From IMG/VR virus record IMGVR_UViG_3300001687_000020: DNA of 64,000 nt; one strand, given 5' to 3'. Below, one piece after another: positions 1,938-58,859 of this stretch. This stretch comes from a virus. Its lineage: Duplodnaviria; Heunggongvirae; Uroviricota; Caudoviricetes. How positions within the stretch are numbered: the first letter of the stretch is position 1; each line of letters opens with the position of its first letter. The position numbers were made by a program, and so were the translations under genes. The notes beneath the pieces were generated by a model. It did no database searches and was not told where the DNA came from. It saw only the letters and a program-made list of their open reading frames with translations.

Positions 1938-2000
1938 AGGGAGCGATCTAATCTTGAGCTAATGAGGTCCATCTCCACTTTAAGAAAAAGATCGCTCCCT
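1938..2000. terminator. bidirectional hairpin terminator between convergent genes
   Basis: Inverted repeat GGGAGCGATCT ... AGATCGCTCCC (11-bp stem) between the + gene ending at 1929 and the - gene ending at 1999. Confidence 0.55.
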
Positions 2001-2268
2001 AAATTTCAGGAAAAAATTTCTTAACCAATTCATCTACTTTCTTATTATATTCTTCTTTCCAAATTCTAGGTTTTTCAACTCTAATATCCATTTCTGTGGG
2101 AGTCAAGATTATTTTAACTCTGGCTCCCACATAAACAGTATTTCCATTTTTTGCATTATCTTTATCAATTTCTGCTATGACATTTCTTCCTTCTTTATCT
2201 TCTAAAAATACCGAAAAACTATTCTCAAATACTTCAGTTACTTCGCCTTTCCATTTTTCTAAGATCAC
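1999..2268 (-). CDS. hypothetical protein
   Basis: 89-aa ORF. No motif recognised. Confidence 0.45.
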   Translation of the reverse strand: MILEKWKGEVTEVFENSFSVFLEDKEGRNVIAEIDKDNAKNGNTVYVGARVKIILTPTEMDIRVEKPRIWKEEYNKKVDELVKKFFPEI

Positions 2269-2591
2269 TTAAATCACCTCTTTCCTATTATTTCTATTAT
2301 GTTCTTAGTATTACAGAAATCAATAAAAAACTATATATATTAATATCCGATATAAAAGAAACTATTGTTTTCTATTTTTATATAGATAATAATAGGAGAA
2401 AGGAGAAGGAATATGTTTACTATATTTATGATGGTAACTAGTTGGTCAGCTCTTTTCTTAGGTATGACTATTGTAATAAAATCTATCTTCAGTAAGGATA
2501 GAGGTGGAGTTTTATAATTCGTTTTTTTATTTGGAAGTTTAATGCTAGGAGTATTTATAGTAGTTAACTATTTTTAAGAAGGGAGTATAGT

Positions 2592-8853: not shown

Positions 8854-9073
8854 TTATTATATATGAATTCTATATATATTAATTACTAGAATAATAGTTG
8901 TCAGTTTTTTATTAACTTCAAATGAGAGGAGGTGTTAAACTTACTTATTACGTAGGGAAAGTACTGATTTGCTAGATTTAAATTTTTACAATGATAGTAC
9001 TATTAAAGGTATTTAAAGAAGTTTTTAAATACTTTTAACTCATCACTAACCTTTTGGAAAAGGAGGTTTCCAA

Positions 9074-25834: not shown

Positions 25835-26491
25835 CTATATAAACCCGTAAATTAAATGAATACGTGAAGAAAAGTTAAACTTATATTTTTCTGTCATATC
25901 AAAGACTTCAGGAGAATTTCTAATTAATGTTTCTCGGTCAATCCCCTCAGGCATTAGATAAACTTTATTATTAATATCTAAATTACTCAAAAATCCCAAG
26001 TAGTGTCTAATAAGATCATTATTTTCAAATACTATCTTTATATACAAGTTTTTAATATCTCTTAGTTTTTTAGTTACATCCATTTCTTTAAGTAAATCAT
26101 TTTCATTAAAGATTTTAGGAGAATATATGTATTTAACTTTCTTATCAGGGGTAACTTGATTAATTAAATCAATTAAATGATAACCATTACTTTCAACATT
26201 TGCTAGAGGATAATTTAAATAATTGAGTAGTTTTAGTGAATCATCTATATGCTTTTGAAAAGTAGGTTCGCCTCCAGTAATTAATAAACCCAACTTTTGC
26301 TCATTTATTATATCTTGCAAAGGTCCTAAAGAAAATTCTGCTTCCTGCTGAATACGCATTTTCACTAATGTGTCACACCAAGGGCAAGACTTATTACAAT
26401 ACTTAAATCTAAATAAAAGCATTCTTTTTCCCATATCGGGTCCTTCTCCTTGCAAAGTCGATGTACATTCAATCCCTTTAACTGTGTCCAT
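25835..26491 (-). CDS. queE: 7-carboxy-7-deazaguanine synthase QueE (radical SAM)
   Basis: CNKSCPWCDT cysteine cluster and the LITGGEPTF glycine-rich SAM motif. Confidence 0.85.
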   Translation of the reverse strand: MDTVKGIECTSTLQGEGPDMGKRMLLFRFKYCNKSCPWCDTLVKMRIQQEAEFSLGPLQDIINEQKLGLLITGGEPTFQKHIDDSLKLLNYLNYPLANVESNGYHLIDLINQVTPDKKVKYIYSPKIFNENDLLKEMDVTKKLRDIKNLYIKIVFENNDLIRHYLGFLSNLDINNKVYLMPEGIDRETLIRNSPEVFDMTEKYKFNFSSRIHLIYGFI

Positions 26492-26594: not shown

Positions 26595-27512
26595 TTATTC
26601 ATCATCCCATGTGTATTCTTGAGTTTTCGTTGAAGTCAATGGTTCGGTCAACTGAGTATAACGATCTATCCAAGAAAATTTAACCATTGCCTTTATATCA
26701 GGAATAAACCATTTTGGTAAATTCGATTCATTCTCAGGGATTGAAATAGTTTCTAATTTTCGGTTTTTAGTTTCAAAATTCTTATAATACTTTTCTACTA
26801 CATCTTTGGGAGCTATGTCTTTATCCAATCCTAATAATTTAAATAAATATCCCTTAGTTCCAGGTAAGAAATAATTATACATTAAATCATTCCAATTTAA
26901 CATAGATACCACATTTTGAGGTATCTTTTTATATTCGGTTAATTTTTTACCAAAACTTGAAGGTCTAGCAACCTCCTTATCACCTGCTTTAATTTTCTGA
27001 ATGAACTCTTTTTCTTTTACATCAATAAAATCCAATATTTCTACTATAGATATACTATCTGAGGAAAGCATCATATCCAAAAGAACTTTTAGATACTGTT
27101 TAGTTAAGGCGGGGTAATCACTTCTTTGAGTTTCTATTCCTACGATTTTAATTTCATTTACTAACTTTTCTTCTCTCTTTACGATGTTTAAAGCATAATG
27201 TTTTTTAGAAATAAAAACTCCTCTTTTACAAACCAATTCGTTCTTTAATCTTAACTTATTTACATCTACATTCACTTGGTGTTTTTTTACTACACCTAAT
27301 ACTATCTTATTATTTAAAAAATTTTCTATTCCTCCACATATTTTACCTACTTCATTTAAATCTTCCTTGTCTACAAAGTCCTGAAGTACTACAAAAATAG
27401 AATCGGTATCACTGGTTATTATATATTTAGTATAATCTTTTAACCCTCCATAAACATTACTTAATTCTTCTATATCACCATACATAGCATCCTTCGACAA
27501 AATATTACCCAT
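26595..27512 (-). CDS. family-B DNA polymerase, C-terminal piece (motif C + KKRY palm/thumb)
   Basis: TSDTDSIFV is motif C (YGDTDS). ISKKHYAL is the KKRY motif. Confidence 0.85.
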   Translation of the reverse strand: MGNILSKDAMYGDIEELSNVYGGLKDYTKYIITSDTDSIFVVLQDFVDKEDLNEVGKICGGIENFLNNKIVLGVVKKHQVNVDVNKLRLKNELVCKRGVFISKKHYALNIVKREEKLVNEIKIVGIETQRSDYPALTKQYLKVLLDMMLSSDSISIVEILDFIDVKEKEFIQKIKAGDKEVARPSSFGKKLTEYKKIPQNVVSMLNWNDLMYNYFLPGTKGYLFKLLGLDKDIAPKDVVEKYYKNFETKNRKLETISIPENESNLPKWFIPDIKAMVKFSWIDRYTQLTEPLTSTKTQEYTWDDE

Positions 27513-27614
27513 TCAAGGTCCTCCTTCCTTTATGATTTGTTCATAGGTTTTGAGCAACTTCAATTTGGAAAGAACTAGTGGTTTTATATATATTAATTAC
27601 CAGTTAAAGTATAT

Positions 27615-27650
27615 TGGATTGTTGCTTTTTTTAACAGTCAAGAAAAGCAA
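27615..27650. promoter_or_regulatory. hairpin in polB-intervening region
   Basis: TTGTTGCTTTT ... AAAAGCAACAA inverted repeat. Confidence 0.35.
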
Positions 27651-27679
27651 CAAAAAAATAATGGAAAGGAGGAATTGCT

Positions 27680-28348
27680 ATGATTAGCAAAACAATTACT
27701 GAGAAGGTCTCTGAAAACCTAGGTATAGGAAAGAAGAAGGAAAAGGAGAAGAAGAAGTCCGAAAAGAAGAATGGTAAAAATAGTCAAGAAAAGAAAGTCA
27801 CTTTTTTTGAATCTCTTAACTCCCAGATAACTGCTTTTGATAAATTCATAAGAGATACAGGAAAAACATTAAAGAAGTCTAAAGTCGCTTTTTGGATTTC
27901 TTCGATGGCTATAACTTCATTGATTTTCCTGGTATTTCCAACTGTTTTTACTAAAGTAGTTGGGATTTGCTTATTGATAGGTATAGCTTTAATTCTTACC
28001 ATTCAATTCTTTCAGGATCAACCTTGGTTTGAAAAAGCGCTACTAACTGAGATTTCACTCATAACCTTCCTGGTTGTCTTCTATGTCTATTTTCTTCTAT
28101 TTTGGATAGTACCCATTGGAATTCTTTTAGTTACATTATTAGTAACTTGTTTTACTGCTGTTTTCTTAACTTATAAAGGAATACTTTTATTAGGAAAGGA
28201 GAAACAAAAAACGAAAGAACCAGGAAAAGATGGAAATTTTGAGGCCAGAAGGTCTGAGGATGGTAAGCTTTCAGTAGACCATAAAGCTCCTCAAAGAGAA
28301 CCCACTGGGAAAAAGGTTCCTGATGATTATTGGAATTTACCTGAATAA
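27680..28348 (+). CDS. polytopic membrane protein with K/E-rich N-terminus
   Basis: Four or five TM segments. Lies on the opposite strand between the two polB pieces. Confidence 0.5.
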   Translation: MISKTITEKVSENLGIGKKKEKEKKKSEKKNGKNSQEKKVTFFESLNSQITAFDKFIRDTGKTLKKSKVAFWISSMAITSLIFLVFPTVFTKVVGICLLIGIALILTIQFFQDQPWFEKALLTEISLITFLVVFYVYFLLFWIVPIGILLVTLLVTCFTAVFLTYKGILLLGKEKQKTKEPGKDGNFEARRSEDGKLSVDHKAPQREPTGKKVPDDYWNLPE

Positions 28349-28440
28349 TTTAACTCTCGGTGGGTTACTTGGTTTTAAATAATCAAGTAACTCACCGTTA
28401 TTTGATTTTCTTTAATTTTTTATATAAGGAGATAGGAAAA

Positions 28441-28950
28441 ATGTTTGGAAAAAAAATATTTGCTGTTTTCTGTGTTTTTATTTTAGTTTGTTTGATTTTT
28501 TCTTTTCCTGGGTATTGCCAGGACATTTCATTTCCACAATCTGAAATCCAAAGGTATTATGAAAGGACTATACGAGAGGGATTACTCGAGAAGTTATCTA
28601 AACCTATGGGCCCAAAAGATCCTTCCAAAAATGTGGATGGGATGGCTGTTTCTTATTTCTCCAGCATGGGGAAAGAAATAGTTGGAATTTTGGGTGATCT
28701 TAAAAAGATCGAAATGATCTATAATAACAAAGAACTCGATGATGGGAAGAAAATTAAAGAGACCAAAAAGATATTGGAAAAAATGGACTCTTCAATTTCT
28801 TCTCTGATGTTCGACTATCTTGGAGTAGCCAACTATATAGTCTACACCGGATGGGAAAATCTCAGCGAGGACGAGAAATTCGTGGTCAATCCAGAAAAAT
28901 ACCTTTTTGATATGCTCTTGGACGTTTCAGAAGGGAATAGTCCAAAATGA
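28441..28950 (+). CDS. secreted protein
   Basis: Signal peptide MFGKKIFAVFCVFILVCLIFSFPGYCQ. SD TAAGGAGATAGG. The MFGK start was chosen over 28360. Confidence 0.5.
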   Translation: MFGKKIFAVFCVFILVCLIFSFPGYCQDISFPQSEIQRYYERTIREGLLEKLSKPMGPKDPSKNVDGMAVSYFSSMGKEIVGILGDLKKIEMIYNNKELDDGKKIKETKKILEKMDSSISSLMFDYLGVANYIVYTGWENLSEDEKFVVNPEKYLFDMLLDVSEGNSPK

Positions 28951-29324
28951 AAAGCTTATCGGGAATAACCATAGGTATTCTCATTCTTGCTATCATTCTC
29001 TCACTTTTTAATATAAGTTTTGCGATAGGTTTATTTACCTTATCCATGGTGATGTTATTCATCAGTTATAAAAGTGAGAGTCTACGATTTGGTATTTTTT
29101 GCTACGGAATATGTATCCTAATTTTTGAGATCTTCTTTACTCTCATTAATTGGATATTGTTTCAGGCAGGGTTAGCTGTTTTTTGCCTTGTAATTTCGAT
29201 CATATTTGGAATTCTAATGGGGTTCATATATTATCTTTTAGGTATGGTTCCCGCTAAGAAATTCCATATTTCAGTTGATCGATATGGCAAAATTATTGGC
29301 GCTATAAAACTCACGAAATACTGA
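28947..29324 (+). CDS. membrane protein (4 TM)
   Basis: Four TM helices. ATGA overlap with the previous gene. Confidence 0.5.
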   Translation: MKSLSGITIGILILAIILSLFNISFAIGLFTLSMVMLFISYKSESLRFGIFCYGICILIFEIFFTLINWILFQAGLAVFCLVISIIFGILMGFIYYLLGMVPAKKFHISVDRYGKIIGAIKLTKY

Positions 29325-29328
29325 ATAT

Positions 29329-29390
29329 TAGTGGTGGGGGTCTCCTAGTCGATATCTTTGGAAGGACGCGGCTAGGAGACCCTTTCCACA
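29329..29390. terminator. strong hairpin terminator
   Basis: GGGGGTCTCCTAGTCG ... CGGCTAGGAGACCC long inverted repeat between convergent transcription units. Confidence 0.6.
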
Positions 29391-29445
29391 TTCGGTGAAA
29401 GGAGCATACCCAATTATTTGTTCATATTCGAGACTATTTTTTTGC

Positions 29446-31773
29446 TCAATTTTTAGAAAAATTACTCATATAATTTTCTGCTTCTAAAATACAAGTTTTA
29501 GTAATCTCTTGACCTGATAAAGTAACTGATGAGGCTAAATCGGGGCAAAAGAATCTAAAATGTGAGTTTGCTAAAACTCCATAAAAAGAGTTTGCTAAAA
29601 TTTTATAAGCCCATTGCTTCATATCATATTCTGTTTCTATCGTTTTATTTTCAGCTTTAAACATTTTCTTTTTATAAATATCTCGCGTTTCCATAAGTTC
29701 TTTTAAAATATCTGAGAAAAAAGAACTCTCCTCTTCATGACTTTTATAAAAGCAACCATTTATAGTGACTACTAATTTTTCATTTTTAAATTTAGCAATT
29801 AAATCTTCCTTTTTCATAATAACTAATTCATTCTTTTCTAATGGATCTAATATCACTTCTACCTTATCAGGAAAACTATCTATATTATAAATAAAATCAT
29901 AACCATTAGTAAAATCTTTAAACTTCATAACGAAAGTGTTAAAACCTATATTATAAGTAATAATTAAACTTGGATACAGACTTTTAAAATCAAAATCCAC
30001 TATCCAATCATGTATACCTAAATTAGGTTCTTTTACATATCCTCCAGGTATACTACTATTATCACCACTAGAAACAAAATTCCTCGGAGACATACCTTTC
30101 TTTTTAAGATAGCATAAAACATAATTATCAATCTGACCAATAGTTGAAAAACTTGATCTAAAAGTTGTGCTACATAAAAGCCTTAATTCATTAAGTAATG
30201 AAATATAGTGTCTTTTTCTTTCTAATTCATCTAACAACTCAACGTCCGTTCTATTATACTCAACAAATTTATCAATATCATTTCTATATAAATCAGTTAT
30301 AGTTCCATCATACCTGACTTTAGTATGTTCTAATTCCTCTTGAGCAATAAAGTCCAAGGTATAACTTTCTTTTCTTGATTGAGAAAATGTCTTATATAAA
30401 TTACACATGTCTATACATATTTTTCCTGCTATATGTAAATAATTTCTAGAAGTATCAAACTCCAATTCTCCATATTTAGATAAAATCTTATTTGATATTC
30501 CTAACTTTGGGCATCTATTATAGATATATAACAAGTCAAATCCTAGATTCCACCCAGCAATAATATCAGGGTCAATATTAACTAAATCATTAACCAATTT
30601 GGAAACCAACTCTTTTTCTGTTTTAACAAATATTCTATCTTCAGAAATAGTTGGTTTATTTTTAACCAAACTTGATGCTATACTATAACTTATAGTCTTT
30701 CCATGGTATCTATATGATATTGAATTTATAGGTCTTTTTGCCTCTTCTGGTCTTGGAAACTCCATAGTTTCACCCAAGTCAACTTCAATATCAACAAAGA
30801 ATATATTCAAATTTTTAGTTGGAGCTTCTTCTTTATTTAATAAATAATAATCGACGGCATACTTATTATCTATTCTTATATCGCCCTCATAATGGTTATT
30901 AGCATTTAAAGAATACTTATTTTTATATTCTAATCTCATAGTTTTAAGATTATCATAATTTTCAACTAGTTTAGATGATCTGTTTGAAGATTCATAGCAA
31001 TAGTACTGAGCATTTTCTTCGTGGTATACTTTTTTATTATCTTTATCTCTAAAAATAAATATTATTTTAGAATTATTCTTTATCGATTGAATATCAACTA
31101 ATCTATACTCGTTGGTATAAAATTTATCAGGAATAGTTATAAAAACTGGGGCCTTTTCTTTTGATTCTTTAATTCCCGAAGTTATTTCCATTTTCTTCTC
31201 AGCATTTCCTGTTACATATTTATATGCTTCAAATAAGTCTTTAGTAAAATTCTCTTTCATCTCAGGATTAGGTCTTCTGGCTAAATATGATGGATGAATA
31301 GTTACTAAAATCTTATAGTTTTCCCATTCAAAATAGTTTCCTCTGATCTTAGTTATACCACCACTTATACCAAAAGCACTACATGCACTAGCCCCCATTA
31401 AAACAATAAGTTTTGGATTACATTTTCGTATGATATCGAAACAATTTAATTTACATCTTTCTATAACTTCTTTACTTGGATTTCCTGTAGTTCCATCAGG
31501 ATTAATAGTTTGACAAAGAACCACATTAGTCAATAAATATTTAACTTTATTCTTGAAAAAATAAAAGTTAAAACCTGATTTCCTAAATACCTGTCCAGAT
31601 TTTCCTATTAGAGGGACTTCCTTATCTACTTCATCTTTACCAGGATTTTCAGCAATAAAGATCACTTCTACATCATCTAAATATTTACAATTAGTTTCTA
31701 GTATACAACTTGGGCAACTTTCTAATGGGCACCCTTCGCAATCAGTTAATGTCGATGAAATTATTTTAAACAT
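29446..31773 (-). CDS. family-B DNA polymerase, N-terminal piece (UDG4-like domain + 3'-5' exo + motifs A/B)
   Basis: N-terminal FIAENPGKDEVDKEVPLIGKSGQVF resembles family-4 UDG (GEAPG...PFvG.aG). FFVDIEVD is Exo I. DFDFKSLYPSLII is motif A. KILANSFYGVL is motif B. The ORF ends before motif C. Confidence 0.85.
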   Translation of the reverse strand: MFKIISSTLTDCEGCPLESCPSCILETNCKYLDDVEVIFIAENPGKDEVDKEVPLIGKSGQVFRKSGFNFYFFKNKVKYLLTNVVLCQTINPDGTTGNPSKEVIERCKLNCFDIIRKCNPKLIVLMGASACSAFGISGGITKIRGNYFEWENYKILVTIHPSYLARRPNPEMKENFTKDLFEAYKYVTGNAEKKMEITSGIKESKEKAPVFITIPDKFYTNEYRLVDIQSIKNNSKIIFIFRDKDNKKVYHEENAQYYCYESSNRSSKLVENYDNLKTMRLEYKNKYSLNANNHYEGDIRIDNKYAVDYYLLNKEEAPTKNLNIFFVDIEVDLGETMEFPRPEEAKRPINSISYRYHGKTISYSIASSLVKNKPTISEDRIFVKTEKELVSKLVNDLVNIDPDIIAGWNLGFDLLYIYNRCPKLGISNKILSKYGELEFDTSRNYLHIAGKICIDMCNLYKTFSQSRKESYTLDFIAQEELEHTKVRYDGTITDLYRNDIDKFVEYNRTDVELLDELERKRHYISLLNELRLLCSTTFRSSFSTIGQIDNYVLCYLKKKGMSPRNFVSSGDNSSIPGGYVKEPNLGIHDWIVDFDFKSLYPSLIITYNIGFNTFVMKFKDFTNGYDFIYNIDSFPDKVEVILDPLEKNELVIMKKEDLIAKFKNEKLVVTINGCFYKSHEEESSFFSDILKELMETRDIYKKKMFKAENKTIETEYDMKQWAYKILANSFYGVLANSHFRFFCPDLASSVTLSGQEITKTCILEAENYMSNFSKN

Positions 31774-31977
31774 ATTCTCTCCTATTTTTATAATTTTAAA
31801 TTTATATTATGTTCTAACTCTTTAAGAAACATCTATTTGGATAAAACCAATTAGAATATATATATTAATTACTGGTATTTAAGAAAGTGGTTGTTGCTTA
31901 GAAAATTATATTTTTTAAATGTATCTTTTTTCTCTCTCAATAGAAGGATACATTTACATTGTAGGAGGTGTATTGTC

Positions 31978-34223: not shown

Positions 34224-35060
34224 ATGATGGGGATACACGCTGATTCCTTTTTTGCTAAATCTAAAAATCATATTGCATGCGGGGATTATGCTATTAGTAT
34301 AAATAATCCATTTCCAATGGCTATAGTCTGCGATGGATGTTCGTCATCTAGTTATTCAGACATAGGATCTAGAATTTTAGCACATTCAGCTAAGAAATGT
34401 ATGTTAAGTCATTATGAATCTGGCGATCTAATGTTTAATATCAGCCACGATACGTTAGGTAAATCAATTATAATCAACTCTTGTAATTCATGTTACTTTT
34501 TAGGACTTACTTGTCAAGCTTTGGACTCAACTCTTCTTCTCGCTTACCACACATATAATGAGATAAGAGTTTTAACTTTTGGGGATGGAATAGTAGTTCT
34601 CAGAAATAAAAATGGGACTTTACACTTTTTTGAAATAAGTTATAAAAACAATATGCCTTACTATTTATCTTATGATTATGATAAAACTAGAAGGCAAGAA
34701 TACTTTAGACAGAGTGAAGGAGGGAAAAATGAGAAAATATGTAAAGCCGTAACTTGTATAAATGGAGATTTCTATAGTGCTTCCCATCCTGTTCGTGAAG
34801 GATTAACATTCAGATTTCCTGTTGAAGAGTTTCTATTCGTAGGCGTTTGTTCTGATGGTATGAGTCAATTTAAGAATCTTTTAAATAATGAATTCTTAGA
34901 AACTTCAGATATATTATTTCCTTTTACTGATTTTAAGAATGTTCGTGGATCTTTTATCCAACGAAGAGTAAAGAGAGAACTAAGTGATCTTGCTCAAAAA
35001 AAGATAGTTAATATTGACGATATAGCTATTTCAGGAATTTGGATTCCAGAGGAGTACTGA
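34224..35060 (+). CDS. PP2C-family Ser/Thr phosphatase-like protein
   Basis: AIVCDGCSSSS...GSRI, FVGVCSDGMSQF and the C-terminal NIDDIAISGIWI resemble PP2C motifs (vaDGmGG, lcSDGl, DDiTvv). Confidence 0.6.
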   Translation: MMGIHADSFFAKSKNHIACGDYAISINNPFPMAIVCDGCSSSSYSDIGSRILAHSAKKCMLSHYESGDLMFNISHDTLGKSIIINSCNSCYFLGLTCQALDSTLLLAYHTYNEIRVLTFGDGIVVLRNKNGTLHFFEISYKNNMPYYLSYDYDKTRRQEYFRQSEGGKNEKICKAVTCINGDFYSASHPVREGLTFRFPVEEFLFVGVCSDGMSQFKNLLNNEFLETSDILFPFTDFKNVRGSFIQRRVKRELSDLAQKKIVNIDDIAISGIWIPEEY

Positions 35061-36772
35061 TGAAAATATTTATACCTGGACAAGGATCAATTCAACTAAG
35101 CGACTCAGATTTTATATATAAAGGAGGAGAAGCAAAAGTTTATGGAAAAGGGGACCTAGCATATAAAATTTATTGGAAGAAAGATGAAGTAATATCTCTT
35201 TCTAAAATAAAAGAATTACAAGTTTTAGATCGAGATAACATAATTAAGCCATTATCAATAATTTTAGATCATAAGAATATTCCTATTGGGTTCTCGATGC
35301 TATTAATAGAAGATAATTTCCCGTTCCCTGTGATTTTCTCAAATGCTTTTAGAAGAGAGAATAATATTGCTCCAGAAAAGATTTTGGAGTTAGTTGAAAA
35401 TATTATGGGAAGTACTGATTTTATTCATAGTAAAGATTGTTTGGTAATTGATGGAAATGAAACAAATTATCTTTTAAGTAGGGATTTAAAGTTAGTTTAT
35501 TTCATTGATGTTAATAATTATCAAACTAAATCTTTTCCTGGTGTTTATTGTGATCCTTCTATAAGAGATTGGAATACTAAAGGATTTAATAAACTCACAG
35601 ATTGGTACTCATTTGCTATTATCGCATGTAAAATATTTGTAGGTGTTCATCCATTTAGGGGAAATCACCCAGACTTCCCAAAAACCGATATAGTTGCTAG
35701 AATGAAAGCAAATGTTTCTATTTTCAATAAGAAATCAACCATTTCTAATAAGGCCAGAGATTTTAGTAATATTCCCAGTGAGTATTTTAATTGGTTTATT
35801 AAACTTTTTGAAGATGGAAAAAGGTTGCCTCCACCTAAAGTTGCTGGACTTCTCAACGTATCCCCCATAAAAACAAAGATAGTGAGAGATTCTAAATGTT
35901 TTGATATCTCGCTATTTCGAAAGTTTCAGGACGACATCATGAAAGTTAGATATGAGAATGGAGAGTTAATTACAAAAACTAAGAAGAGTATGTATATTGG
36001 GAAAATTCCATATCCTCTTTCTGATATTAGTAAAGAACTAATTATATCCCCAAGAAGTTTAACCCCAGTTTTAGTAGGTATCGTTAACCAATTAATTTCT
36101 ATTACTTTACTTAGACCGGCAGATTTAAAAAAGTTAAATTCATGTATTCACTTAATGGCCAGTGATTTCTTTGTTTCTAAAAATTCTATATTCTTGAAAC
36201 ATCAAGGTAAGTTAGTAGAAATATCTATCGATGAACTTGCTGGTGTTATTATTCCTTGTGTAAAATCTAGTTGGAATATAATGTCCATGTCGAGTTATAT
36301 GTTTGATTCTATTGTAGTTCAAGATGTTTTAGGTGATATTTATTTGACCATTCCTATAGTTAATATAGGAAAACGATCATCTTATACTCAGATACGAATC
36401 CCCGAATTAGATAGTTATCGAATAGTAGCAGCAAAGTATGATAACTATGTTTGTATGCTAACAGGAAATAGAGGAAGTGTTTATAGCAAAATACTTATTC
36501 TATTTGATAAAGATTTCACTGATTACCAATGTATTATTAAGAATAGTGGAGATTATAGTAATATTAACTTTACGAGTTTGGATTGCGGAATATGTGCATC
36601 TATCAATGATGATGGTTCCATGGAAATATTTGAGAATAAACCAGGAACTAATTTTAAAAAGATAGAAGATCCAGACATTAAACCAAGCATGACTTTATGT
36701 AAATATGGAAGTAAAGTACTATTTTATGAAACAGATACTTTATTTTCCATATCGTCTAAGAAAGGGATCTAA
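35060..36772 (+). CDS. protein kinase-like protein with long C-terminal extension
   Basis: YKGGEAKVYGKGDLAYKIYWKK is a glycine loop plus Lys. IHSKDCLVIDGNETNYLL is the catalytic-loop HxD...N. FIDVNN is DFG-like. TDWYSFAIIACKIFVGVHPF matches DxWSxG. ATG overlaps the PP2C stop (TGATG). Confidence 0.6.
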   Translation: MKIFIPGQGSIQLSDSDFIYKGGEAKVYGKGDLAYKIYWKKDEVISLSKIKELQVLDRDNIIKPLSIILDHKNIPIGFSMLLIEDNFPFPVIFSNAFRRENNIAPEKILELVENIMGSTDFIHSKDCLVIDGNETNYLLSRDLKLVYFIDVNNYQTKSFPGVYCDPSIRDWNTKGFNKLTDWYSFAIIACKIFVGVHPFRGNHPDFPKTDIVARMKANVSIFNKKSTISNKARDFSNIPSEYFNWFIKLFEDGKRLPPPKVAGLLNVSPIKTKIVRDSKCFDISLFRKFQDDIMKVRYENGELITKTKKSMYIGKIPYPLSDISKELIISPRSLTPVLVGIVNQLISITLLRPADLKKLNSCIHLMASDFFVSKNSIFLKHQGKLVEISIDELAGVIIPCVKSSWNIMSMSSYMFDSIVVQDVLGDIYLTIPIVNIGKRSSYTQIRIPELDSYRIVAAKYDNYVCMLTGNRGSVYSKILILFDKDFTDYQCIIKNSGDYSNINFTSLDCGICASINDDGSMEIFENKPGTNFKKIEDPDIKPSMTLCKYGSKVLFYETDTLFSISSKKGI

Positions 36773-55705: not shown

Positions 55706-56695
55706 CTAACATATATTCATATCTAAAATATCACACATAGTCTCTGCCACTGTTTTTCCATCGAATGGTGATTTATACGGATTACTATATTCTGGTAAAG
55801 TTGTTTTCATAATTGATTTTACTTTATCACATAAATGTCTATAATTAATACATAAAGTTCCATTTCTACTCATCGCTTCTGGTCTCTCAGTACACGTTCT
55901 TACTACTACACATTTAGTTTTTAGTAAACAACATTCTTCCAATACCCCACCACTATCAGTAATAACTAATTTACTTCCTGCTAACTGTCTAATAAAATAT
56001 ACATAATCCAATGGATCACAAGTTTTTATAAACTCATATCCCTTAGGAAAAACTTTTTTAGTATGAGGATGGATAGGAAAAATAGTAGAATACTTCTTTT
56101 GTATTTCATGAATTTGATCCAATAGTATAGGAAAATCATCATCGAGTATGTTCTCTCTCCTATGGATTGTTATTAGAATATTTGCTTCATCTTTTCTTTT
56201 ATCTGGAGGGATTGATGGAAGGATAAAATTTAATGCATCGTTGATAAGATTTCCTGTTAAGAAGGCTTTACCGTTTAGATTATCTCTAACTAAGTTATGA
56301 ACACTTTCTACTGTAGGACAAAAGAAATAATTACTTATTCGATCAGTTAATACTCTATTTATTTCTTCAAACATAAACTGATCATAACATCTTAACCCTG
56401 CTTCAATATGAAGGACTTCTCTTCTTGCTCTCTTATAGTTATAGGCCTGCTGAAAGCAAGAATCAGTATCACCATATACTCCAACTAATGGGTAATATGG
56501 TTCCGATATTCTTTTTTGATTTAGTATATCTTCGACTCCAAATTGTCTAGAAAAAGTTCCAAACATATTAAAATCTTTATGCTGCCCAGTATATAATATT
56601 TTAAAAGGTAATTTTCTTTTCTCCATCTCCAGTATTAAAGGAGATATTTTTATTATGTCTGGACGAGTAGAAACTACTAAATCTATTCCTTTCAT
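55706..56695 (-). CDS. wecB: UDP-N-acetylglucosamine 2-epimerase (WecB-like)
   Basis: STRPDIIKISPLI...ILYTGQHKD...HIEAGLRCYD...EEINRVLTD match WecB/MnaA conserved blocks. Confidence 0.8.
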   Translation of the reverse strand: MKGIDLVVSTRPDIIKISPLILEMEKRKLPFKILYTGQHKDFNMFGTFSRQFGVEDILNQKRISEPYYPLVGVYGDTDSCFQQAYNYKRARREVLHIEAGLRCYDQFMFEEINRVLTDRISNYFFCPTVESVHNLVRDNLNGKAFLTGNLINDALNFILPSIPPDKRKDEANILITIHRRENILDDDFPILLDQIHEIQKKYSTIFPIHPHTKKVFPKGYEFIKTCDPLDYVYFIRQLAGSKLVITDSGGVLEECCLLKTKCVVVRTCTERPEAMSRNGTLCINYRHLCDKVKSIMKTTLPEYSNPYKSPFDGKTVAETMCDILDMNIC

Positions 56696-56713
56696 AATAT
56701 TCGATCCTTTCTT

Positions 56714-57547
56714 TTACCAACACCTAAGTCCACCCTTTAATTTCATTATTTCTCGATAAAATTCTTCGAATGATTGCTTTCCAATCTTTTCATCCACTTC
56801 TCGATTTTCTATGAGAGTCTTTAGTTGAGGATCGTTTCTATACCTAGTTAAAACATTACATATACTTCCTGATACTCTTCCTCCACAATTTAATACAAAA
56901 ACTGTTTGTAAACCTATAATGTAGGGACTTTTATTAGAAACTTTTGATAACAAAGACCAATACATCTGGTCATGTTTTTTATCATGTCCCACTAAAGGGG
57001 GAATACTAAGATATCCTACATCATCGAAAAAGTTATTCTTAACCGTCCAAAAACCTGAACCGCCTAATATTCCAATACTTGCCGTATGACCTGCTATTTT
57101 AGCGGGTAAATCTTTTCTATTCTTTATTCCTCCTGGAGATTGAGTAACTATTTTTATATTTTTAAGTTTTAGTCGTTCTACGTCTTTCCAAGCCTTTCTT
57201 ATGAGATCATCCCAATCTGGGAGGACAAACATATCATTATCCATAAATACCAAAAATTCAATCTTATCTTTGTTTGGATCCATGGAATGAAGTTGCCCAA
57301 AAGTATTACATGCTACAGCTTTAGAAAAAGCATTAAAAGTTGACTCTTTAGTATTACATGTATACTGTGTAATTTTATTATTCTCATATAAATTTTGAAA
57401 ATAATCCCAGTGATCTTTTATCCTATAACTCGTTAAGTTATCATATACATATATCTGTCTTGGTCCATTAGTATGTCGTAAAAGTGCTTCAATACATTTC
57501 TTCGATATTTCAAATCTATTTCGTATTGTTACCATAATCTTTATCAT
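56714..57547 (-). CDS. glycosyltransferase (GT-A-like)
   Basis: FLVFMDNDMF DxD-type motif. Confidence 0.5.
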   Translation of the reverse strand: MIKIMVTIRNRFEISKKCIEALLRHTNGPRQIYVYDNLTSYRIKDHWDYFQNLYENNKITQYTCNTKESTFNAFSKAVACNTFGQLHSMDPNKDKIEFLVFMDNDMFVLPDWDDLIRKAWKDVERLKLKNIKIVTQSPGGIKNRKDLPAKIAGHTASIGILGGSGFWTVKNNFFDDVGYLSIPPLVGHDKKHDQMYWSLLSKVSNKSPYIIGLQTVFVLNCGGRVSGSICNVLTRYRNDPQLKTLIENREVDEKIGKQSFEEFYREIMKLKGGLRCW

Positions 57548-58859
57548 TCACATTTCTCCTATTTTCATGACTTCCTAGCATACTAATAGCATCTTGTAGT
57601 AATGCGTCAATATTAATCTTATCATAACAACTACTGGAACCATCAGGATTAGCATGTGGGCAAGGTCGATGTCCATGAAGAAAACAGGGTGCACATGGCG
57701 ATGGAGCATTAATCCATTTTGAGTTTTTATAAGTGGAAAGTCTTATTTCTCCAGGAAAAGGACCATATATTCCATAATAAGGAATATTCAATCCCGCACT
57801 AATATGTGATATAGCACTATCAATTGAAATAGCCATTTTGGCTAGAGAAACTAAAGCAATAGTTAAATCCAAACTTTTAGAGAAGACTGAAAAATTCATA
57901 CATGATCGTGGATGACTTAAAGTCTTGATAAACTCTTCGACATAAGGTGCTCGATGTGGAGAATCAGTAATAACCGTAGTATATCCTAAGGTATTAAGTT
58001 GATCAATTATTCTTTTCCAGAAAAATGGACTAGGTGTTCTGACTGGAGATGAAGCACGAATTTGTAAAACTATAAAATTCTTTGGGGATGTTCCCCACTG
58101 TTTGAGTATTCCTTCTACTTCTTTTACTTTTTTAGGTTTAGGTTCTATTATAGGATAGAGTAAGTTAGTAGGAAGGTCTAGCCCTAACCATTTTGAAAAT
58201 AATACATATGCGTTATTGGTATGGGCTTCTTTACATCTTTCAATAACACCTTCAAAAGTTACATGATAATCACTATGTAAGAGATGACTTACATGAAAAG
58301 GCAAGTCTAAAAGTTCATCAATACAATCCCAATTATCAACTAGTGAAGAATACTGAGGACCACAAGAAAATTTAATATGACAATCAGGATAGGTTTCTTT
58401 TAAATAACGAAGATTTGGTTGGATAAATAAGAGATCACCAATTCCGCCTGTTCGCCAAACAAGTAATGTTTTTCCATCTAAATTCTGACCTCGGTATGCT
58501 TTAAAGATATTCTTGAATTTCATTGTTCCTGGTACCAAAACGGTTTTATGTCTATAAGGGTCGTATTTGAGTTGATTATAGACACCTAAAGACATTACAT
58601 ATTGGGATTTTCTTTTAAATGATTGAACACGAAATTTATTTTGGATAAATTTAACATCTAATTTACATTGAGCTATAATAATGTTTGGAACACCACGTCT
58701 AAGTTCTTCCATTGAATCTGCCATTTTCATATGGTTTTGAGCAACTAAACCAAATGCTCTCAATTCCCTTGGAGTTACCGGTTTTGCCTGAACTGGTAAA
58801 CCGTCATGCATCATAGAATTAAAATGTTCAGGGCGTATCACAGGATTAGCTACATCCAT
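57516..58859 (-). CDS. GT9 heptosyltransferase-like glycosyltransferase
   Basis: LLVWRTGGIGDLLFIQPNLRYLKETYPDCHI matches the GT9 N-terminal signature (r.gaiGDvl...P.l..lk..yP.a.i). Confidence 0.7.
   Translation of the reverse strand: MDVANPVIRPEHFNSMMHDGLPVQAKPVTPRELRAFGLVAQNHMKMADSMEELRRGVPNIIIAQCKLDVKFIQNKFRVQSFKRKSQYVMSLGVYNQLKYDPYRHKTVLVPGTMKFKNIFKAYRGQNLDGKTLLVWRTGGIGDLLFIQPNLRYLKETYPDCHIKFSCGPQYSSLVDNWDCIDELLDLPFHVSHLLHSDYHVTFEGVIERCKEAHTNNAYVLFSKWLGLDLPTNLLYPIIEPKPKKVKEVEGILKQWGTSPKNFIVLQIRASSPVRTPSPFFWKRIIDQLNTLGYTTVITDSPHRAPYVEEFIKTLSHPRSCMNFSVFSKSLDLTIALVSLAKMAISIDSAISHISAGLNIPYYGIYGPFPGEIRLSTYKNSKWINAPSPCAPCFLHGHRPCPHANPDGSSSCYDKINIDALLQDAISMLGSHENRRNVNDKDYGNNTK

Follow-up and report, generated by a model that had tools for sequence, protein, structure and literature searches.

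Family B DNA polymerases (PolB) that are encoded in two pieces have been described for several phages and archaea. In the T4-like phages 133, 44RR, 31, 25, and 65, PolB is split at the fingertip, with the two cistrons lying between 2 bp and 3 kb apart; in phage RM378 the split is located between the N-terminal and the palm domains, and in M. thermautotrophicus it lies in the palm, with 85 kb separating the two genes (PMC3061061). The two gene 43 products of Aeromonas phage 25, gp43A and gp43B, purify together and have polymerase activity (PMC2988022), and separate fragments of a split Pfu polymerase reconstitute full activity (PMC3061061). In 44RR and 25, PeSL-like promoter and stem-loop sequences are situated between 43A and 43B (PMC2839356). 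Here we report on the polymerase locus of a stretch of 64,000 nucleotides (nt) of phage DNA (IMG/VR record IMGVR_UViG_3300001687_000020; hereafter the window), which most likely encodes a replicative DNA polymerase of the T4/RB69 gp43 type that is naturally split into two subunits. Its two open reading frames (ORFs) are separated by a cassette of opposite-strand genes, and the larger one opens with a predicted uracil-DNA glycosylase (UDG) domain:

26595..27512, minus strand: small polymerase piece of 305 amino acids (aa), with the remaining palm (motif C TSDTDS, KKxY), the thumb, and the C-terminal tail
29446..31773, minus strand: large polymerase piece of 775 aa, with UDG, N-terminal domain, 3'-5' exonuclease, motif A, fingers with motif B, and post-finger helix, terminating within a variable linker
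about 31234-31674, minus strand: predicted family-4 UDG domain of the large piece (aa 34-180; PF03167, E 9e-16)

Concerning the identity of the pieces, the large one matches the Pfam families PF00136 (DNA_pol_B, E 3.5e-29) and PF03167 (UDG, E 9e-16), and also PF20286. On the PHROG profile phrog_262 ('DNA polymerase', 856 positions) it occupies positions 17-564 (E 7e-103), and the small piece positions 570-767 (E 3.8e-21), so that the two pieces abut on the profile; on phrog_1918, positions 14-91 fall on the large and positions 97-362 on the small piece. Judged by these profiles, both ORFs are adjoining parts of one PolB, without gap or overlap on phrog_262. The set of gp43-type motifs is full, and divided: the large ORF holds Exo I (FFVDIEVD, with D-I-E invariant among 45 homologues), motif A (DxxSLYPS, here DFDFKSLYPSLII), and motif B (KxxxNSxYG, here KILANSFYGVL), and the small ORF holds motif C (DTDS, here TSDTDSIFV) and KKxY (ISKKHYAL). 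In alignments with RB69 gp43, residues 384-632 of the large piece correspond to residues 192-447 (E 2.5e-29), the exonuclease motif being present, and residues 686-759 to residues 522-595, such that motif B lies at about 560 and the large piece extends to about residue 595-610. Residues 28-50 of the small piece correspond to RB69 residues 614-636, which span D621 and D623 of motif C, and its ISKKHYAL is aligned with the KKRY region. The lengths of both pieces sum to 1,080 aa, and fused relatives measure about 1,064-1,090 aa; hence nothing has been lost or gained in comparison with the fused form.

The break lies in one linker of variable length and poor conservation: when the pieces are aligned with 12 fused homologues, every large piece stops and every small piece starts within it. 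This linker is situated between '...SGQEAxKTxIL...' and the conserved 'LTKxEMYGD...ITGDTDS', and the ends fall within 10-15 residues of linker. The N-terminus of the small piece reads M-x-N-(I/V)-L-T-K, of which M-x-N-x-L-x-K is invariant in six orthologues. As a stand-in for the window protein, an AlphaFold model was made of P0020, the fused sister homologue (mean predicted local distance difference test score, pLDDT, 88). Its top matches in the PDB are RB69 and T4 gp43 (TM-scores 0.73-0.78), i.e., the fold is gp43-like, and the break maps to a coil at residues 762-770, where the local confidence dips. A long helix (732-761), situated after two finger helices, precedes this coil, and the motif C beta-hairpin (792-803) follows it. 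A preliminary description, made from the sequence alone, had already read the two ORFs and all of the quoted motifs in this manner and placed the break between motifs B and C; the RB69 alignment, the profiles, and the alignment with 12 homologues agree with it, motif C being located in the small ORF and the small ORF matching the same PolB profile as the large one.

With gp43A/43B of the Aeromonas and Acinetobacter phages (44RR2.8t, 31, 25, 65, and 133), the locus shares a gp43-type PolB on two same-strand cistrons that follow each other from N- to C-terminus and together are complete, the distribution of motifs A and C onto different polypeptides, and a break in a poorly conserved, length-variable segment. 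The likeness to the split gene 43 of Aeromonas phages, as proposed in the preliminary description, hence holds in kind, but not in detail: the fingertip split lies upstream of motif B, about 90 residues upstream of the break in the window. Their insert is either nothing, a short untranslated spacer, or a same-strand homing endonuclease, whereas that of the window consists of three opposite-strand ORFs with no endonuclease domain. Furthermore, these phages are without the UDG fusion, and their sequence identity to the pieces of the window is about 25-35%. In phage 65, pairwise alignment places both motifs B and C on 43B, with gp43B residues 33-84 corresponding to residues 717-768 of the large piece and residues 96-288 to residues 30-223 of the small piece. 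According to the records, 43A and 43B of phage 65 are separated by 2 bp, and those of phage 25 by a same-strand homing endonuclease. Aeh1 was considered as a further example of a split gene 43 and rejected, its record containing a single gene of 919 aa. By site and type of insert, the polymerase of the window is not a member of the 43A/43B group, but it very probably works in the same way.

In PolB1/PolB2 of the Methanobacteriales, too, the split lies in the palm, about 83 residues C-terminal of Pfu residue 467; the large subunit is N-terminal and the small one C-terminal, together they form an active enzyme, and no intein has been kept (PMC3061061, PMC4104785). As far as the literature allows comparison, theirs is a cellular archaeal enzyme with genes about 85 kb apart and a split ascribed to faulty intein excision, whereas the pieces of the window are 1.9 kb apart and the break lies before motif C. 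Motif C of the Pfu enzyme, which we take to be D541/D543, would place the split of the Methanobacteriales at or just after motif C. Genes split by free-standing homing endonucleases (Aeh1 nrdA by mobE; T4 gene 39/60 by mobA) and the split-intein PolB of Nanoarchaeum equitans are likewise essential genes in two cistrons that function via subunit assembly (PMC2988022); unlike these, the window contains neither endonuclease nor intein, its break is situated in a non-conserved loop instead of a conserved motif such as homing elements target, and its insert lies on the opposite strand.

A search for fused versus split versions in related phages, suggested in the preliminary description, yielded the fused form as the rule and one split clade. 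More than 110 of the 120 best homologues in a large-database search (44-49% identity) are single UDG-PolB chains of about 1,050-1,110 aa, all 27 IMG/VR relatives are single fused ORFs, and an exhaustive search with hundreds of fused relatives gave the same picture. The only closer relatives of the large piece (61-62% identity) are 744-793 aa long and end at the same place. Stand-alone orthologues of the small piece are 307-311 aa long and 52-62% identical to that of the window, some of them sharing a contig with a large piece; among six small pieces in this range of identity, DTDS, KKxY, and 90 more columns are invariant. In a neighbour-joining tree, four split large pieces (56-74% identity within the clade) constitute an exclusive clade that is nested in the fused proteins and sister to the fused P0020. 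This position, together with the fused IMG/VR relatives, indicates that the split state is derived, arose once in this lineage, and has long been kept.

In four other split genomes (L001, L002, L005, and a JGI contig without DNA) the break is found at the same loop, with 5, 5, 2, and 3 opposite-strand genes, respectively, between the pieces; within the split clade the insert measures 1.1-2.6 kb, is antisense, and contains 2-5 genes. Outside the insert, the gene order matches that of fused relatives (polymerase, QueE-like radical-SAM protein, thymidylate synthase, a protein of about 460 aa, DnaB, T4-type portal). Independent samples and assemblers (JGI 3300027917, JGI 3300028897, ENA ERZ27275891, Logan) yielded an arrangement identical to that of the window, on five or more contigs. 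The split clade was found neither among GenBank phages (best match about 28% identical) nor in IMG/VR with its 27 fused relatives.

Within the same UDG-PolB family, and with the same synteny of the replication module, a second conserved two-ORF polymerase exists (828 aa + 266 aa in L013):

L013 3531-6801 and L014 2-1520: second split type, represented by P0161, P0165, P0168-P0170, P0174, P0179, P0184, P0187, P0193, P0199, and P0202

Unlike in the window, the polymerase is broken about 20 residues past the DTDS of motif C; the same-strand ORFs share 17 nt, and a cassette is absent. The boundaries are common to about 12 representatives of 50%-identity clusters. This type is an independent event in a different sub-clade and could be either a true bicistronic split or a programmed frameshift. 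A further candidate, P0137 (306 aa; L012 1-140), was rejected as an independent split: the DNA upstream encodes motif B, the frame is broken at a T-run, and the contig has 3x coverage. As a stand-alone small piece it is a gene-calling artefact; therefore, short polymerase fragments in protein databases are not to be counted as splits without a check of the DNA.

Each of the two polymerase pieces possesses its own ribosome-binding site and its own bipartite leader, the copy of the small piece having been overlooked, together with the UDG domain, in the preliminary description:

27520-27525, minus strand: ribosome-binding site AGGAGG of the small piece, 7 nt before the ATG
27529..27600, minus strand: promoter-like leader of the small piece, with box TAATTAATATATATA at 27585-27599 and box GAACAAAT at 27535-27542
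31801..31872, minus strand: promoter-like leader of the large piece, with box TAATTAATATATATA at 31857-31871 and box GAACATAA at about 31807-31814

The two leaders form a 72-nt repeat (D1), that of the small piece being 71% identical to that of the large piece. In an alignment comprising the leaders of both pieces of the window and of L001, of the small pieces of L002 and L005, and of the fused gene of L009, only two sequence boxes are conserved; these, ATTAATATATATA and GAACA.A, are invariant. A distance of about 45-50 nt separates them, and the start codon follows the first box after about 85-95 nt. The 15-mer box occurs in 3 copies in the window, compared to 0.27 expected. In the first set of related loci, every copy has the orientation of the gene and, save for one extra upstream copy in L015-L017, is located 85-95 nt upstream of the start of a polymerase or polymerase piece. 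In the fused IMG/VR relatives the box lies 66-99 nt before the polymerase in about half and heads different transcription units in the others, almost always in the orientation of the gene, and in the related phages (L015-L043) it shows a strong preference for the orientation of the replication module. This distribution suggests a promoter of the phage family. Specificity for the polymerase was considered and rejected, given that the box heads other units in fused relatives and has two further copies in the window; it is more adequately described as a family-wide promoter-like element with putative promoter function, of which the small piece has its own copy. The two additional intergenic occurrences of the (TAA)TTAATATATATA box in the window are at 8871-8885 (minus strand), between plus-strand genes, and at 2332-2343 (minus strand), about 65-75 nt upstream of a minus-strand ORF of 89 aa (1999..2268).

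The insert measures 1,933 nt from the stop codon of the large piece to the ATG of the small piece, and three plus-strand ORFs fill nearly all of it:

27612..27660, both strands: AT-rich intergenic hairpin between the divergently oriented small piece and cassette gene 1 (folding free energy, dG, -14.7/-12.6 kcal/mol; z -4.2/-4.5)
27680..28348, plus strand: cassette gene 1, 222 aa, with a Lys/Glu-rich N-terminus, at least three transmembrane-like segments, and a charged C-terminus; without Pfam, PHROG, or PADLOC match
28358..28397, plus strand: terminator-like hairpin after cassette gene 1, with a stem of 17 bp and a T-rich tail (dG -25.3 kcal/mol, z -8.2)
28438..28950, plus strand: cassette gene 2, about 170 aa from the ATG at 28438 (mechanical ORF from the GTG at 28360), with a signal- or anchor-like segment at the N-terminus and a soluble domain behind it; without family match
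28947..29324, plus strand: cassette gene 3, 125 aa, a multi-pass membrane protein with at least two transmembrane-like segments and the conserved C-terminal tail VDxxGKI(I/V)G.I...K
29331..29389, both strands: GC-rich hairpin in the gap where the 3' ends of cassette gene 3 and of the large piece face each other (dG -39.1 on the plus and -30.1 kcal/mol on the minus strand; z -6.0/-5.3)

The three plus-strand genes for membrane or secreted proteins and the two flanking hairpins (then delimited as 27615-27650 and 29329-29390) had been recognized in the preliminary description, and both features stood up to examination, with three transmembrane-like segments in the first product, a signal-like segment in the second, and at least two transmembrane-like segments in the third; both hairpins fold better than all of 200 shuffled sequences. 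Public gene calls on identical contigs give cassette gene 2 a length of 169 aa. At the position of cassette gene 1, L001, L002, and L005 encode proteins of similar build without detectable sequence similarity, whereas cassette gene 3 resembles a 125-aa protein of L005 (BLASTP E 2e-8). The family of cassette gene 3 (about 115-125 aa) is the only cassette family common to the split genomes, being present in the window, L005, L002, and probably L001, and a profile search of 5.8 billion proteins recovered only the four cassette members and no others. Altogether, 13 of the 15 cassette proteins of the split genomes are membrane or secreted proteins, which, save for the gene 3 family, have diverged past recognition. 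The cassette proteins of the window and its relatives have no match in Pfam, PHROG, or PADLOC and include no recombinase, homing endonuclease, or intein fragment; nor do they resemble the ORFs upstream of the large piece or any other ORFs of the window, L001, L002, L005, L009, and L010. The G+C content of the cassette is 0.32-0.37, versus 0.24-0.30 in the polymerase pieces.

The hairpin at 29331..29389 is probably a bidirectional terminator or insulator, as yet putative; a hairpin directly after the stop codon of the large piece, facing the convergent cassette, is found in the window, L001, and L005. The hairpin at 27612..27660 has no U-tail on either strand and is therefore not a canonical terminator, but may constitute a leader or operator element of the cassette mRNA. 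The cassette is bordered on one side by the conserved promoter-like box, and strong hairpins lie on the opposite side and within it. It may be comparable to the PeSL cassettes or 'morons' of T4-type and other phages, small accessory ORFs without known family that carry their own promoter and stem-loop or terminator and turn over quickly in hyperplastic regions (PMC2839356). Those, however, are situated between genes, whereas the cassette of the window lies inside an essential gene, and the repeated element here is a putative promoter of a different sequence. Inspection of the insert boundaries, as recommended in the preliminary description, revealed no remnants of homing endonucleases, but a 14-nt near-repeat, TATGAACAAAT(A/C)AT, near both ends of the cassette; it was rejected as an insertion scar, being located outside the ORFs and absent in the relatives, and one of its copies is the GAACAAAT box of the leader.

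Concerning the UDG domain of the large piece, four Cys residues, E-N-P-G, and H-P-S are invariant among 45 homologues, and public gene calls label it 'uracil-DNA glycosylase family 4'; it is predicted to be a family 4 UDG with Cys ligands for an Fe-S cluster. A large uncultured phage family, with hundreds of 90%-identity clusters (P0019-P0134; L009-L043) and contigs of up to 312 kb, ordinarily has its PolB in this UDG-fused form. Functionally, the fusion recalls the polymerase-UDG holoenzyme of poxviruses, as well as the recently described UDG-PolA fusions (bioRxiv 10.1101/2025.03.26.645540).

In the neighbourhood of the polymerase, a QueE-like radical-SAM gene follows directly (window 25835-26491, minus strand; L002 3892-4677), and QueC is found in relatives, which suggests, as far as gene content can tell, a 7-deazaguanine modification of the phage DNA. 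The slot downstream of polymerase and radical-SAM gene is occupied by ThyX in the window (PF02511, 24849-25619, minus strand) and by ThyA in relatives (PF00303; L005 4333-5079, L009 12781-13542), a non-orthologous replacement at a syntenic position. The unit divergent from the polymerase contains a pair of genes for a PP2C-type phosphatase and a Ser/Thr protein kinase (window 34224-36772, plus strand; L001 630-3071), which is conserved between both. In fused relatives, homologues of ribosomal protein S21 (PF01165) and of Cpn10/GroES are situated beside the replication genes (L009 11975-12542; L010 4479-4763). Farther away in the window, an ORF of 373 aa (39280-40401, plus strand) is similar to the PHROG transposase family phrog_4285 (E 6e-25) and may represent an insertion sequence within the phage genome, and the region 55706-58859 (minus strand) contains sugar-modifying genes, namely a UDP-GlcNAc 2-epimerase (PF02350, E 9e-55) and a protein resembling family-9 glycosyltransferases.

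According to the explanation that we favour, the ancestor would have possessed a single UDG-PolB protein of about 1,080 aa, into whose gene a promoter-bearing block of accessory genes was inserted in antisense orientation. The insertion would have hit a surface coil of the palm with little conservation, flanked by the long helix after the fingers (motif B) and by the beta-hairpin of motif C. The upstream part (UDG, N-terminal domain, exonuclease, motif A, and fingers) would then close at its stop codon, followed by the strong hairpin that faces the convergent cassette, and the downstream part (motif C, KKxY, and thumb) would use its own AGGAGG and its own copy of the leader of the polymerase gene. 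Given a separate ribosome-binding site and leader copy for each half, the halves would be expressed separately and probably coordinately. The two polypeptides are thought to associate non-covalently and to rebuild the palm, with a composite active site to which the large subunit would contribute the aspartate of motif A and the small subunit the aspartates of motif C. That both pieces form a heterodimer is a prediction strongly backed by the conservation of intact pieces in a clade that has diverged to 52-74% identity, and by the published precedents. The cassette would constitute a hyperplastic accessory locus with a fast turnover of membrane and secreted proteins, and the split clade would have carried it here ever since its common ancestor; the cassette's early functions are probably, if speculatively, aimed at the cell envelope or at superinfection exclusion.

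Several other explanations have to be weighed against this two-subunit polymerase. Since the insertion breaks an essential-looking gene and the cassette carries nothing that might remove it by splicing, the locus might be regarded as a decaying pseudogene in a phage that relies on the polymerase of its host or of another phage. This is very improbable, however, for at least five lineages, which have diverged to 52-74% identity, retain both halves intact and of full length and with invariant catalytic motifs, the small piece has a strong ribosome-binding site and the conserved leader in every lineage, and the large ORFs of the 64-kb window include no second DNA polymerase. A joining of the halves into a single chain after transcription or translation, by a cis- or trans-splicing intron or a split intein, has precedents: among phages and archaea, group I introns and inteins are frequent guests of family B polymerase genes, the annotation of gene 43B of phage 25 includes a group IA2 intron, and PolB of Nanoarchaeum is united by a split intein (PMC4104785). 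Yet there is hardly any probability left for it here. The preliminary description had noted the missing in-frame connection and excluded an intein, and we come to the same result: the ends lie in the 10-15 residue linker without intein-sized extensions, the 775 and 305 aa sum to the fused length, and the start of the small piece (M-x-N-(I/V)-L-T-K) is unlike an intein C-terminal segment followed by a Cys/Ser/Thr nucleophile. In addition, no Rfam family, introns included, reaches its gathering threshold in the window (the sole match in the insert at E <= 1 is a chance snoRNA), opposite-strand ORFs occupy nearly the whole insert, and stop codon, ribosome-binding site, and ATG are present at the junctions.

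The metagenomic origin of the contigs, together with the 14-nt near-repeat close to both cassette ends in the window, might point to an assembly artefact, or to a programmed excision or inversion of the cassette during infection that restores the fused gene. To this we attach the smallest probability of all: the same arrangement occurs in independent samples and assemblers and in diverged relatives, no cassette contains a recombinase, and the repeat lies outside both ORFs, would not restore the frame, and is absent in the relatives. A different origin with the same present function would be a tandem duplication from the upstream leader through the polymerase, followed by complementary degeneration, with the cassette genes derived from the upstream divergent genes. 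The second leader copy of the small piece (72 nt, 71% identical, with the same boxes and spacing) and the position of both leaders in divergent intergenic regions facing opposite-strand genes would fit such an origin, but the cassette proteins are unlike the upstream ORFs and all others in the genomes compared, and the box, being family-wide and also placed ahead of other units, needs no local duplication to be shared. For the leader such an origin is possible, the cassette genes lend it no support, and on the whole we consider it unlikely.

Some points nevertheless weigh against the naturally split polymerase. The promoter activity of the leader, the terminator activity of the hairpins, and the assembly of the subunits are all inferred from sequence; the window represents 64 kb of a contig of about 72 kb, such that a second polymerase may be situated outside it; and for a break situated in the second palm segment, behind the fingers, there is no experimentally characterised precedent, the characterised phage splits being located at the fingertip.

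The arrangement is real and conserved; as split phage polymerases are already known, it is not a new kind of system. Novel are the long-maintained break between motifs B and C, the host lineage (UDG-fused PolB of uncultured T4-like phages), and the hypervariable cassette of several opposite-strand genes, which comes with its own copy of the family's promoter-like leader. A rather unlikely extension would regard the linker as an entrenched landing pad, whose cassette contents are freely exchanged and yet shielded from loss inside an essential gene: as the cassette region would supply the sole promoter and leader of the essential C-terminal subunit, a simple deletion would be lethal, and removal would need an exact in-frame re-fusion. 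If true, this would constitute a non-splicing counterpart of inteins and homing endonucleases that protects hypervariable early membrane proteins (e.g., superinfection-exclusion or envelope-modifying proteins). In the same vein, the duplicated leader might couple both subunits to one regulator, comparable to the translational autoregulation of T4 gp43.

For family B replicative polymerases, the locus would add a third natural breakpoint at which a cut is tolerated, after the fingers and before motif C, which would be useful for the engineering of split polymerases and for understanding the assembly of the palm. It would equally offer a clean natural gene fission by an accessory cassette rather than a homing element, in which the fused ancestral state, the sister lineage, and the diverged descendants can be compared. 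Finally, it points to a large family of uncultured T4-like phages with a UDG-fused polymerase.

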